Virus record (IMG/VR): IMGVR_UViG_2585427766_000015
DNA length: 37,937 bases
From: a virus
Lineage: Duplodnaviria; Heunggongvirae; Uroviricota; Caudoviricetes
Direction: 5' to 3' (one strand)
The translations under genes and the position numbers were made by a program. Below the pieces are notes generated by a model that saw nothing but the letters and a program-made list of their open reading frames with translations, searched no databases and had not been told where the DNA came from. Positions 3,155-6,590 of this stretch are shown here, in pieces (the first letter of the stretch is position 1; each line of letters begins with the position of its first letter).

Positions 3155-3516
3155 TATGCTCCAGCCTCCGGTGCTTTTGGCATTATTGCCCAGTGAGTGA
3201 TATTGACGTTTTCAAGGTCCCCGACCTGAAATGTCCACTGCCATTCTCCGGTTTCTTTTTGTCCCCATGTGTACCAGAGAGAACGCCAGCCAATTAGCCA
3301 GCCTTCTCCGTTAGCATCGAATAACAAAACACTTTCATTTGCTGGTGGCAGTTCAGCTGACACTGGTATTACTTTGTTTTCCTGTGCTGCACATTTAGCT
3401 TCAAGCGCATCGAATTTACGCACCAGGTATTCAGCATCTGTTTCATTTACTTTCAGATCTCGCGGTACACATCTCCCACGAAGAAACCCTTCCATTTCGA
3501 AAACATTCATGCGCAT
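3154..3516 (-). CDS. DUF551-like phage protein, about 118-120 aa
   Basis: C-terminal WxxxxxLPP ... ITHWAIMPKAPE motif resembling the DUF551 signature; a likely start at 3510 forms an ATGA overlap with the upstream stop. Confidence 0.5.
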   Translation of the reverse strand: MRMNVFEMEGFLRGRCVPRDLKVNETDAEYLVRKFDALEAKCAAQENKVIPVSAELPPANESVLLFDANGEGWLIGWRSLWYTWGQKETGEWQWTFQVGDLENVNITHWAIMPKAPEAGA

Positions 3517-4043
3517 TTGCGTAACTCCGATAACTCGTTAAAACGTTCCATAAACATCCCGTAGGCATGGCCCGGTGCCTGTGGAATCACTTTGAACATC
3601 TCTGTTGCCGGGATACCTTCCAGTACAGGCCAGAAAGAGCCATCATCAAGCCCGAGATCGCGGCGTTCGGTTGCCAGCATAATGAGATCGGCATATTTCA
3701 CTGGCGTGCTCATAACAGGAGGTAACCCGTATTTCTCACGGATTACGGCGTCTATTTTTTCTTCCATCCGTTTATAGTCAGGAAGAAGTCGTTTCAGTGG
3801 TGCGGGGATGTCCTGGCAATATGCTTCTGTTGCATCATGCATTAAAGCTTCAAAAGCAAATTCCTGCGGCACCAGCTGGCTGCAAAGCACCGCATGTTGG
3901 GCGACACTGTAGAAGTGTGAAAGATGTCCTGCAAAGCGACAGATATTTGAAAGGGAAACCGCGATATCGTTAATAACGATGTCGTCTTTATTTATCCTGT
4001 CATAATAAAAATGCTTCCCGGAAAAAGTTTTAATAAATGACAT
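3507..4043 (-). CDS. HD-domain phosphohydrolase (YfbR-like 5'-deoxynucleotidase family), about 178 aa
   Basis: His...HD motif (LMHDATEAY) and overall resemblance to HD hydrolases; the ATG at 4043 has a GGAG Shine-Dalgarno 6 nt upstream (the ORF track extends to a GTG at 4070). Confidence 0.7.
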   Translation of the reverse strand: MSFIKTFSGKHFYYDRINKDDIVINDIAVSLSNICRFAGHLSHFYSVAQHAVLCSQLVPQEFAFEALMHDATEAYCQDIPAPLKRLLPDYKRMEEKIDAVIREKYGLPPVMSTPVKYADLIMLATERRDLGLDDGSFWPVLEGIPATEMFKVIPQAPGHAYGMFMERFNELSELRKCA

Positions 4044-4587
4044 TTTGTTCTCCACGTATATGCGCTGCACCGCGCTGAATTCGGGTAAAAGGAAGCCCTC
4101 ACCGTCCGGCGATTATTGAGTCAATTACATTTCCATAAATGCCCCCGTAGGGGCGGTTAGTTTCTCCACAAAACAGAGAAGAACACCTGCGGTGGCAGCC
4201 GCCCGGATGGATTGGGTTATGAGCCCGTCGTCCGGTGATGCTCTTCTCTGTTTTGTAAAAAGGACGGTACCAGCCGGAAGCAAGGGTACAAACTGGTACC
4301 GCCAGGACTACACACAGCATAAAGTTGTGGTGCCGGGTGCCTCCCGGTGCCTGGCGAAGGTTGCACACCAGACGGGTGGGTATCCACAGAAGGTCGACTG
4401 TCAGCCTCAACCTTAACCCGCGTGCGCTGAGCCGCATTCACCACAACGCTAAGAATTCTCTCTGGTTGAAAATACTTAGCTGTTATGTGCCTGCTTTTAG
4501 CCACATCAGGCGAGGTGGACCTGGTTATTCCCCAACAACAAGGATTCGGTTAATCTGGTTATCCCCAACAACGCAAAAGGAAAAGAA

Positions 4588-5022
4588 ATGTCCGGTAATA
4601 TCTATACGCTGTACAAATCCCACTGTGAAAATGTTGGAAAGTATCGGGGCATTGAAATCAGTGGGGTAGTGTCATCAGTCGAAATAAGCAAAGTTGAATC
4701 AAGGGCAACATTACTTACTCTTCTGGACCTTGTCTTACATGAGCACCGGAAGAAATTCGGCACTCCCTATAATCAGTTGAATGGGAAAAAAGCTCTGGTT
4801 CACCTTATTCTGATGAAGCATCACTGGATGCCAAAACAGATTAATGAGATGAAATTTGATGAACTTCTTCTTTCAATTCAGGATGAACTCACGCTTGATA
4901 AAATAAGCGTAACCGCCCAGAAATTTTTAGATTATCGAGACTGGAGATCACAAATTCATCACTTTGATGATTTTGACGAAAATGAATGGGATCCTAATTT
5001 GTCTGCACAATATCTAAAGTAA
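4588..5022 (+). CDS. Hypothetical protein, 144 aa, AT-rich, antisense to the leftward early operon (moron)
   Basis: ATG with AAGGAAAAG upstream; tandem 19-bp direct repeats at 4521-4572; a + strand terminator at 5259-5283; no recognisable family. Confidence 0.6.
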   Translation: MSGNIYTLYKSHCENVGKYRGIEISGVVSSVEISKVESRATLLTLLDLVLHEHRKKFGTPYNQLNGKKALVHLILMKHHWMPKQINEMKFDELLLSIQDELTLDKISVTAQKFLDYRDWRSQIHHFDDFDENEWDPNLSAQYLK

Positions 5023-5200
5023 CATCCTGTGATAAAACCGTGATTTCCTGATCCAGTTTTTTTAAGGAGTCTATTGTTTCCTGTCGATAAGACAGCACTT
5101 CACGAAGCTGGTTTATAGCTGCCAGCTTCTTTGCCATCCACTCGTAAATTTCCTCATTTGTGTATCCGGGTGCGACGATTTTTGGTTCTGTTTTGTGCAT
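4994..5200 (-). CDS. Hypothetical small protein, 68 aa; first gene downstream of the putative PL-like promoter
   Basis: ATG at 5200 preceded by a strong GAGGAGGTG Shine-Dalgarno; predicted helical/coiled-coil; 3' end overlaps the convergent 4588-5022 ORF by 29 bp. Confidence 0.55.
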   Translation of the reverse strand: MHKTEPKIVAPGYTNEEIYEWMAKKLAAINQLREVLSYRQETIDSLKKLDQEITVLSQDVTLDIVQTN

Positions 5201-5258
5201 TTCACACCTCCTCAAGTTATCAGTTACTTGTTGATGGGGACCAGATTGTTAAAGAGCT

Positions 5259-5283
5259 AAGCGTCCTGTAGGGCGCTTTTTTG
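5259..5283 (+). terminator. Intrinsic terminator-like hairpin plus T-tract on + strand (AAGCGTCC-TGTA-GGGCGCTT TTTT)
   Basis: Seen in sequence; would terminate the + strand transcript of the 144-aa ORF after it has run antisense across the 68-aa ORF. Confidence 0.45.
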
Positions 5284-5448
5284 TTGCTAACGAATCATCC
5301 TGGACTTCATATGCCCCAGGCGGCTACTTCGTGGGCGTCCTGCCTGTTCGTTTTTGACATTTACTGACTGCTTACGACACATGCACCGTGTTGCAACCAG
5401 ATTTTGTTGTAATCCTGTAGTTGGTCTGGAACAAAAGATAAAATTAAA

Positions 5449-5485
5449 TTGCGAGATATGCAAGTGATATTTGCGAGATATGCAA
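5449..5485. promoter_or_regulatory. OL-like tandem operators: two perfect copies of palindromic TTGCGAGATATGCAA, with a putative leftward promoter
   Basis: Copies at 5449-5463 and 5471-5485 match the TTGC-N7-GCAA site in the cI-cro intergenic region; minus-strand TTGCAT -35 and TATCTT -10-like elements overlap them. Confidence 0.5.
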
Positions 5486-5491
5486 ATTTAT

Positions 5492-5520
5492 GGGTAATAA
5501 AAAGCCACCTTTCGGTGGCC
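5492..5520 (-). terminator. Rho-independent terminator downstream of the cI-like repressor gene
   Basis: Minus-strand GCCACC-GAAA-GGUGGC hairpin followed by UUUUUAUUA, about 20 nt after the repressor stop. Confidence 0.6.
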
Positions 5521-5539
5521 GATGGATGGGATATTGAGG

Positions 5540-6232
5540 TTAATTATGTCTCTTAAGGGTTTGCGACTGACTGATTAAGACCTTTCCAAAGACCATGAAT
5601 CGGTGTTCGTTTTCGCTAGTAATTCCCCATTCACGGTAAATCTGGTTATCAGAAATCACCAGCAGTTTGTCAGGAATCATTTGAAGTCTTTTAACGTATA
5701 TTTTGTCATCAAAACCAAAGACATATATACCATCACCATCAAACTGATTGATGCTGACATCAACGAAGATGAGATCTCCTGGCTCAATGGTTGGACACAT
5801 ACTGTCCCCACGAACGTTGATAACTTTGATGTGATTGGCTGGTCGTCCGCCGAACATTGATACAGCATTATCAGTTCTGTATTCGATGGCATGAATCACA
5901 TCAATGACATCACCGCCTTGGATAAGGCCATTTCCCGCACTGGCACTGATATCCAGCATTTCAATACGGAACACATCCTTCACCTGCGCAACATCCTCAT
6001 TATTACTGTTTTTATATACAGTATTACTTTTGTGGGCAGAGGTAAAGAGATCAGCAATATCAACACCTAAGCTCTTGGCAATATTACTCAGTGTTTGTTC
6101 GGTAAATTGTTTTTGCTTACCCGTTTCTAAGCGCGAGATGTTCGCCGCATCTACTCCTATCGCTTCAGCGAGATCGGCGATTTTCATGTTCTTCGCTTGG
6201 CGAAGTTGTCTGACTCGGTTTCCTATGTTCAT
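5540..6232 (-). CDS. CI-like prophage repressor (N-terminal HTH, C-terminal S24 LexA-like autopeptidase domain), 230 aa
   Basis: N-terminal HTH (KIADLAEAIGVDAANISRLETG); C-terminal GDSMCPTIEPGDLIFVD with downstream Lys (Ser-Lys dyad); divergent from a cro-like gene. Confidence 0.9.
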   Translation of the reverse strand: MNIGNRVRQLRQAKNMKIADLAEAIGVDAANISRLETGKQKQFTEQTLSNIAKSLGVDIADLFTSAHKSNTVYKNSNNEDVAQVKDVFRIEMLDISASAGNGLIQGGDVIDVIHAIEYRTDNAVSMFGGRPANHIKVINVRGDSMCPTIEPGDLIFVDVSINQFDGDGIYVFGFDDKIYVKRLQMIPDKLLVISDNQIYREWGITSENEHRFMVFGKVLISQSQTLKRHN

Positions 6233-6329
6233 GCGTTTATTACATTTCTTTATTGCGTGATAAGCAAATCAACTTGCGCAAAATAATTGCGTGAAATAAC
6301 ATGCATAACGCGCAATATTTGGAGGGCAT
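6233..6329. promoter_or_regulatory. Immunity switch region (OR-like operators and divergent promoters)
   Basis: Perfect operator TTGCGTGATAAGCAA at 6253-6267 plus degenerate TTGCG-containing copies (TTGCGCAA, ATTGCGTG, CGCGCAAT); GGAGGG Shine-Dalgarno before cro ATG. Confidence 0.6.
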
Positions 6330-6590
6330 ATGCAATCACCATTACGAAATGTGCGTAAGGCGCATGGTTTCACTTTGCAGCATGTTGCTGCGGGTGTTCA
6401 AGTCAATCCAGCGACGTTGAGTCGTATTGAGAGGCTGGAGCAGATTCCATCTATCGAGCTTGCAGAACGTTTAGCCAATTTTTTTAAGGGTGAAGTCAGC
6501 GAAATGCAGATTCTTTATCCGGCACGTTTTCAATCTAGCCAAAACCAGAATGGGTTTAAACCACAGGAACAGGAGGTGAACCGTGGGTAA
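6330..6590 (+). CDS. Cro-like HTH (XRE family) regulator, 86 aa
   Basis: HTH motif FTLQHVAAGVQVNPATLSRIE; position divergent from the repressor. Confidence 0.75.
   Translation: MQSPLRNVRKAHGFTLQHVAAGVQVNPATLSRIERLEQIPSIELAERLANFFKGEVSEMQILYPARFQSSQNQNGFKPQEQEVNRG

Follow-up and report, generated by a model that had tools for sequence, protein, structure and literature searches.

An ECs1072-family gene behind a homologue of the P22 sieB promoter and sas antisense element in a lambdoid prophage

Introduction

The sieB-esc-sas system of phage P22, including the block that the antisense RNA sas places on SieB translation, was reportedly described by Ranade and Poteete in 1993. Lambdoid phages such as HK97 and HK022 carry morons, independent units made of a promoter, a gene and a terminator. 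Here we describe a locus in a 37,937-nt stretch of Caudoviricetes DNA (IMG/VR record IMGVR_UViG_2585427766_000015; the whole stretch is hereafter called the window), in which the gene for a 144-aa protein of the ECs1072 family stands behind a homologue of the combined sieB promoter/leader and sas RNA region of P22. In P22, sieB is expressed from the prophage, superinfecting P22 makes sas, and sas blocks SieB translation (PMC12197685, PMC7067206). Such an antisense RNA, made and blocking the translation of the gene behind the leader (here called the cargo), is known only for P22 (PMC12197685, PMC13397905).

The analysis established the homology of the module to the sieB/sas element, the membership of the cargo in a protein family, the conserved antisense placement of the gene and the exchangeability of the cargo. 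The sieB/sas control element itself was already known; here it stands in front of a new cargo. We propose that the locus is probably a 'sieB-slot' moron, that is, a unit whose exclusion-type cargo is expressed in the lysogen and shut off by an antisense RNA derived from the early-left promoter pL.

Results and discussion

The leader of the 144-aa gene is homologous to the sieB promoter and sas RNA of P22

The leader and the gene behind it comprise the following features (plus is the rightward strand).

4474-4593, minus strand: homologue of the P22 sas RNA region, which on the plus strand is the sieB-type promoter/leader of the cargo (covariance model R1)
4489-4518, minus strand: interleaved helices S1 and S2, the 3′ domain of the sas-type RNA
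4489-4493 with 4507-4511, minus strand: S1, GCCTG with CAGGC
4501-4504 with 4515-4518, minus strand: S2, CCAC with GTGG
4520-4543, minus strand: hairpin II, which holds repeat 1/box 1 and whose GGGG loop is the complement of 4530-4533
4521-4539: repeat 1, CTGGTTATTCCCCAACAAC, with box 1 at 4529-4539
4528-4533, plus strand: predicted -35 hexamer, TTCCCC, with a spacer of 17 to the -10 hexamer
4551-4556, plus strand: predicted -10 hexamer, TAATCT, which aligns with TAAACT of the P22 sieB promoter (BK000583)
4555-4572, plus strand: repeat 2, CTGGTTATCCCCAACAAC, spanning the predicted start, with box 2 at 4562-4572
4588-5022, plus strand: 144-aa cargo gene, ECs1072 family (NF033230, phrog_5286)

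For the covariance model R1, 13 sequences of the P22, lambda and other types were used, with all window-type sequences left out. The model matched 4474-4593 on the minus strand over its full length (67.4 bits, E 6.4e-15), and on the phages of its own members it gave 116.8 bits for P22 and 113 bits for lambda (L212 983-1103). R1 also matched the leaders that precede ECs1072 homologues in E. albertii, Proteus, Providencia and Yersinia (E <= 3e-4), and those of phages SfII and SfV. The upstream regions of ECs1072 homologues have a common motif, GCCTG-N-CCAC-N-TCAGGC-N-GTGG, which is followed by a hairpin abutting the ribosome-binding site. At least 120 viral contigs carried the motif in a pattern scan, and it is located directly upstream of sieB in both lambda and P22. 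The 127-nt sas RNA of P22 (PMC13397905) is the exact reverse complement of the homologous P22 element; beginning at the sieB start codon, it takes in both boxes and the interleaved helices.

In the P22 annotation (BK000583), the sieB promoter ends with TAAACT, the 'sieB RNA start site' is the A immediately 5′ of CCCC in the second box, and esc is placed inside sieB. Aligned to P22, box 1 of the window lies over the -35 region and box 2 over the start at about 4562-4563, predicting a cargo mRNA whose leader of about 25 nt opens with box 2. With the start placed as in P22, box 1 would be absent from the plus strand RNA, which would carry only about 10 nt of one repeat (box 2). The tandem repeats, judged by their alignment to P22, are the two boxes of the sieB promoter-leader element.

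Hairpin II showed compensatory changes on both sides in four of its eight pairs (RNAalifold), and its G-U pairs on the minus strand are A-C mismatches on the plus strand; both the covariation and the G-U pairs point to the leftward RNA as the structured molecule. S1 and S2 probably exist only in the leftward RNA because they are located upstream of the plus strand start. Compensatory versions of the two helices, GCCGG/CCGGC and CCATG/CATGG, occur in Pantoea P2-like prophages. A 5′ untranslated region pseudoknot or riboswitch of the plus strand mRNA was considered for the interleaved helices and rejected, as the annotated P22 start is downstream of both.

The leaders fall into two classes. In class B, to which P22, lambda and the window belong, two identical boxes stand 33-35 nt apart and enclose a -10-like hexamer, which reads TAAACT in P22 and lambda, TAATCT here, and a perfect TATAAT in several relatives. 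Class A has a single hairpin directly 5′ of the ribosome-binding site and TGnTATNCT right after GGTGG, where its sequence resembles, and may serve as, an extended -10.

The window therefore has in common with P22 the promoter/leader/antisense element, with the GGGG-loop hairpin, the S1/S2 3′ domain and the boxes flanking the -10 hexamer, as well as the placement: in both, a rightward gene converges on the first pL gene and is found between the repressor region and the remainder of the early-left operon. It differs from P22 in the cargo, which is the membrane protein SieB in P22 and an unrelated soluble all-alpha 144-aa protein here, in the box sequence (TCCCCAACAAC against ACCCCTACAG), and in the first pL gene, which encodes the N analogue gp24 in P22 and a 68-aa coiled-coil protein here. 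An extra inverted box and a dedicated terminator are also found in the window. The sieB locus of lambda has the same leader, and sieB is likewise convergent with the first pL gene there, but the cargo is different from that of the window.

The cargo belongs to the ECs1072 family and lies in an exchangeable cassette

The remaining features of the module are as follows.

5200-4994, minus strand: 68-aa early-left protein (phrog_1744, PHROG E 4.8e-34), convergent with the cargo gene
4519-5288: exchangeable cassette, relative to phages SfII and SfV
5259-5284, plus strand: intrinsic terminator of the rightward (cargo) transcript, with a stem of 8 pairs at 5259-5278 followed by TTTTTT

The 144-aa open reading frame (ORF) starts with ATG at 4588, ends with the stop codon at 5020-5022, and is preceded by an AAGGA Shine-Dalgarno sequence at 4577-4581. 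Its product matched the NCBIfam model NF033230 ('ECs1072 family phage-associated protein') with 157.8 bits against a cut-off of 70, residues 4-144 aligning to model positions 2-142 of 142, and matched phrog_5286 with an E value of 1.5e-90. An exhaustive profile search yielded 76 clusters at 50% identity, with most matches of about 145-155 aa aligned over most of their length, and the family is conserved as protein down to about 20% identity. Neither Pfam nor the PDB gave a match to the protein by sequence, and the SieB profile PF14163 was not matched. The AlphaFold2 (AF2) model is all-alpha with a predicted local distance difference test score (pLDDT) of 94.2.

The whole cassette was present in 410 of the 5426 complete E. 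coli genomes (7.6%). Homology to SfII and SfV stops at 4518 and starts again at 5289, and these two phages carry other convergent pairs of small ORFs between the equivalent positions. The cassette holds the repeats, the 144-aa and 68-aa ORFs and the terminator, while 4474-4518 lies outside it, in a flank common to phages with other cargo. GC content is 35-42% in the ORF region against 52-57% in the left flank. The terminator hairpin is more stable on the plus strand than on the minus strand (-12.6 and -7.5 kcal/mol), and the U tract is present on the plus strand only. A terminator at such a distance was rejected as a conserved feature, since Pantoea has a terminator-like site directly after the stop codon.

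These results bear on the first-pass annotation, which had been made from the letters of the window and had described a self-contained antisense moron unit with an orphan ORF. The AT-rich plus strand ORF downstream of the repeats, its convergent overlap of 29 bp with the 68-aa ORF at 4994-5022 and the plus strand terminator are all present, the last being strand-specific by folding, and the reading as a moron-like unit that lies opposite the early-left operon and has a promoter region and a terminator of its own was supported. The ORF is no orphan, given phrog_5286, NF033230, the 76 clusters and the 410 E. coli genomes. As for self-containment, the cassette does hold both ORFs and the terminator, but the promoter-proximal part of the module, 4474-4518, is in the shared conserved flank. 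The unit resembles lambdoid morons in that it has its own promoter and terminator, is lower in GC than its flanks, is exchanged at sharp junctions and is probably expressed in the lysogen; it is unlike them in that its promoter is a socket common to many cargo genes and doubles as an antisense RNA gene.

Antisense placement is conserved and the cargo is exchanged

Ten divergent ECs1072 homologues with 20-72% identity were examined, from E. albertii, GCA_016428845.1, Yersinia, Proteus, Providencia, one sequencing-run assembly, and P2-like prophages of Pantoea and other Erwiniaceae. The homologue was opposite in strand to the early lytic operon in all ten contexts, being located between the early-left genes and the repressor in lambdoid prophages and inside the Cox-to-replication operon in P2-like prophages, and its 3′ end usually overlapped a convergent ORF. 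In the window, the locus of the cargo and 68-aa genes adjoins the operator region on its left side, at the start of the early-left (pL) transcript. The right-to-left order, with cI (minus), the operators (5449-5485), the 68-aa ORF (minus) and the cargo (plus), is the same in lambda and P22.

In four P2-like prophages of Pantoea and other Erwiniaceae (L090, L091, L213 and L214), homologues of the leader, the ECs1072 gene and the small-protein gene were found together between cox and the replication gene. As the module is present in early operons of both lambdoid and P2-like phages, it has moved between the two phage types. A Yersinia prophage (L085 4001-5321) has two slots in tandem on the same strand, the first with a class A leader and an ECs1072 homologue, and the second with a P22-type class B leader (81 bits) and SieB. 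In a Providencia prophage (L088 3702-3890), a gene of the CsrA family (PF02599) is located immediately left of the leader.

Among the fetched loci (viral contigs L093-L211), about 38 unrelated first ORFs were found behind the leader. Most encode proteins of 50-200 aa without a Pfam match, and zinc-ribbon-like, membrane and coiled-coil proteins are among them; in a Pfam scan of 10 cargo representatives, only the P22-type cargo scored above the cut-off (SieB, PF14163, E 3.2e-25). The exchange junctions are sharp and fall right after GGTGG or right after box 2. Because unrelated cargos are joined at these two positions, the element behaves as a conserved socket with exchangeable cargo. No paper describing the leader as such a socket was found, within an incomplete coverage of the literature.

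A lysogen-expressed cargo under antisense control

Promoter use, antisense shut-off and expression in the lysogen are transferred here from P22 by analogy. Read rightward, 4474-4593 would be a weak sigma-70 promoter of the cargo; read leftward, it would give a sas-type antisense RNA of about 120 nt that covers the Shine-Dalgarno sequence and start codon of the cargo. In the lysogen, cI would hold pL off and the cargo would be made from its own promoter, on a transcript that would run antisense across the entire 68-aa gene and end at the terminator at 5259-5284. Once the prophage is induced, or a phage of its type infects the cell, transcription leftward from pL would run through the cargo gene and give the sas-type RNA, which would pair with the cargo leader, so that translation of the cargo would stop and the phage would escape its own product. 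In such pairing, box 1 would be found in the hairpin loop on the antisense side and box 2 at the 5′ end of the mRNA, and the identity of the boxes may let this 5′ end nucleate on the GGGG loop. A lysogen-expressed exclusion gene with antisense interplay with pL, in line with possibilities raised in the first-pass annotation, matches the homology of the element to the sieB/sas module of P22 and lambda. A growth-phase-dependent microarray signal was reported for ECs1072 in Sakai cultures without deliberate induction (PMC2241611).

Several observations weigh against this proposal. A promoter consensus scan of 4000-6500 flagged no rightward promoter, and the predicted promoter is weak. Single-sequence folding of the sas-like RNA of the window was no better than that of shuffles (z = +1.0). 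S1 and S2 are invariant in most sequences since the search pattern fixed both, which leaves the Pantoea lineage as the support for these helices. The 5′ end of sas could be produced either from a promoter of its own or by processing of the pL transcript. In P22, Esc is required as well and is made from a start inside sieB; no convincing start of this type was seen in the 144-aa ORF. The 144-aa protein is without SieB-like membrane segments, it belongs to no known defence family in PADLOC, and its fold had no structural match among PDB or viral structures. Because defence family, membrane segments and structural relatives are all missing, the function of the cargo is read from its position, and an exclusion or abortive-infection effector is a possible assignment to which we give somewhat less than an even chance.

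The ECs1072 family has no known function, and its placement in the sieB slot provides a concrete, testable hypothesis, namely exclusion by the lysogen with antisense self-protection. With the conserved leader as a cheap sequence handle, dozens of unannotated prophage cargo genes, probably active in lysogens, could also be collected, and the proposal would extend the mechanism described in 1993 for sas of the single phage P22 to a large class of prophages, P2-like ones included. In its widest and quite tentative form, which we regard as unlikely, temperate enterobacterial phages would use the sieB/sas element as a general plug-in socket: any gene recombined behind box 2 or GGTGG would be expressed in the lysogen and, during growth of the phage itself, silenced automatically by pL antisense RNA, the roughly 38 mostly unannotated cargo families would largely be undescribed exclusion or defence effectors, and the ECs1072 and 68-aa proteins would be an effector and its antidote.

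The convergent 68-aa gene

The 68-aa ORF has a strong GAGGAGG Shine-Dalgarno sequence (complement of 5207-5213), and its product carries an EPxI...W motif at the N terminus, with a coiled coil after it. Homologues adjoin ECs1072 homologues in 9 of the 10 divergent contexts, including those in Proteus, Providencia, Yersinia and Pantoea P2-like prophages, but among about 95 loci where the leader precedes other cargo, only 12 have one. The association is strong and not exclusive, and the lineages are not independent samples.

This association bears on an extension of the proposed moron in which two proteins would act together: the 144-aa protein as an exclusion or toxic effector in the lysogen, and the 68-aa protein, made from pL, as its antidote and an analogue of Esc, with both travelling as one module. 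An Esc-like antidote role is a reasonable guess by analogy with P22. Besides the difference in association (9/10 against 12/~95), both genes are within the exchangeable cassette 4519-5288, and in most contexts they are convergent with overlapping 3′ ends. Against these points, members of the small family are found with other cargo too, in some cases across the leader from it, one ECs1072 homologue (L084) is without a 68-aa homologue, and the lineages are not independent. On balance, the two-protein system is unlikely, with perhaps one of the better cases among the alternatives.

A further alternative places the function in the rightward RNA rather than in the protein. The 3′ part of the RNA would be antisense to the complete 68-aa gene and its ribosome-binding site, and the RNA would silence leaky early-left expression in the lysogen. 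The only strong plus strand terminator is beyond the start of the 68-aa gene, so the transcript would cover the whole gene, and convergent overlap recurs in the relatives and in the cassettes of SfII and SfV. Set against this, the protein is conserved over the 76 clusters to about 20% identity and has a confident fold, and full antisense coverage is not conserved, given the Pantoea terminator-like site directly after the stop codon. We consider an RNA as the main product improbable, and distinctly more so than the two-protein system.

The boxes and a third, inverted copy

The two direct repeats that the first-pass annotation had noted at 4521-4539 and 4555-4572 are present and exceed chance as compared with shuffles; their start-to-start spacing is 34, with one indel. 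All 33 class B leaders examined had a direct repeat of 9-14 nt at an offset of 33-35 nt, with a mean longest repeat of 10.8 nt as against 4.1 nt in shuffles. Six box types were distinguished (TCCCCAACAAC, ACCCCTACAG, TTCCACAGTCAA, CCCCAATGCAA, CCCCAACGT and CCCCCACAA), and the two copies matched each other in every phage examined. A repeat search and a box search with one mismatch revealed one more copy.

5228-5247, minus strand: third, inverted box copy, AATCTGGTCCCCATCAACAA, about 14 nt upstream of the Shine-Dalgarno sequence of the 68-aa ORF

The duplex energy of this third box with 4552-4587 was -24.3 kcal/mol, in the top 0.2% of 3446 background windows, and the copy is kept in E. albertii. 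It was rejected as a general feature, as lambda has no third copy within 3 kb. A segment in the C-terminal part of the cI gene, 5616-5650, resembles 4521-4563 (box 1 to the -10 region), with matches of 12/14 and 16/17 in the same order and on the same strand; this may be a trace of old recombination or chance.

The boxes might instead be DNA operators to which a phage-specific regulator binds, two in the cargo promoter, at -35 and +1, and one upstream of the 68-aa gene. Points for such operators are the six box types with copies that are always identical within a phage, the third copy upstream of the convergent gene and the fixed spacing of 33-35 bp. No candidate regulator that co-varies with box type was found, however, box 1 is part of a covarying hairpin stem whose G-U pairs favour the minus strand RNA, and lambda is without the third copy. 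DNA operators are about as improbable an explanation as a functional rightward RNA.

ToxI and antiQ have repeat lengths that resemble the 34-nt period, which is a point for the degenerate type III toxin-antitoxin module, with a repeat RNA ahead of a ToxN-like toxin, that the first-pass annotation had raised as a speculation. The locus is like ToxIN, AbiQ/antiQ and CptIN in its short direct repeats of about 34 nt upstream of a gene and in its phage-related context, and unlike them in having only two copies, one of which would be outside the transcript. This reading is very improbable and was dropped, as repeat 1 and half of repeat 2 would be upstream of the +1 predicted by homology to the P22 start, no terminator-like site is found at 4539-4588 to separate the repeats from the ORF, the repeat is missing from more distant members of the family, which show a single hairpin, and the protein has no ToxN or AbiQ similarity in sequence or fold, its confident all-alpha model (pLDDT 94) being without a PDB or viral structural match.

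Surroundings of the module

The window is a lambdoid prophage of the SfV/SfII/SfIV type, with the following further features.

1369-1441: tRNA gene adjoining the prophage
1459-2622: integrase gene
5449-5463 and 5471-5485: operators, TTGCGAGATATGCAA, with a related copy at 6253-6267
5540-6232, minus strand: cI-type repressor gene (Peptidase_S24 and HTH domains)
6330-6590: cro

The tRNA was the sole Rfam match at the gathering threshold. The left flank at 4255-4477 (minus strand) gave a full-model match to STnc100 (RF02076; positions 1-206 of 206, 41.9 bits, E 2.5e-7) against a gathering score of 47. STnc100 is a prophage small RNA (sRNA) related to PasD (RF02076; bioRxiv 10.64898/2026.05.13.724894). 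The STnc100-like sequence abuts the sas-like element and comes directly after it on the leftward transcript, but it is outside the cassette, as a neighbour and not a part of the unit. This flank is GC-rich and carries a hypothetical ORF in the annotation of SfII and SfIV. Long ORFs at 4325-4669 (plus) and 4099-4437 (minus), which are annotated as hypothetical in SfIV and SfII, share sequence with the sRNA-like flank and the sas-like element. Their composition is odd, with much Arg, Cys and Gly, and they are unlikely to be genes.

The right flank, 5289-5357, is located between the operators/pL and the first early gene and is conserved in Yersinia prophages as well as in phages of Shigella, Salmonella, Citrobacter and Pantoea. 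One of its stems seems to covary, with CCTGG/CCAGG in the window and CCGGTG/CACCGG in Yersinia. A nut- or put-like site is suggested by the position of the flank, but single-sequence folding of 5289-5357 gave unimpressive z-scores. On the other side of the module, the early-left gene at 3507-4070 (minus strand) encodes an HD-domain phosphohydrolase of the 5′-deoxynucleotidase (YfbR) type, labelled deoxyribonucleoside 5′ monophosphate phosphatase in PHROGs.

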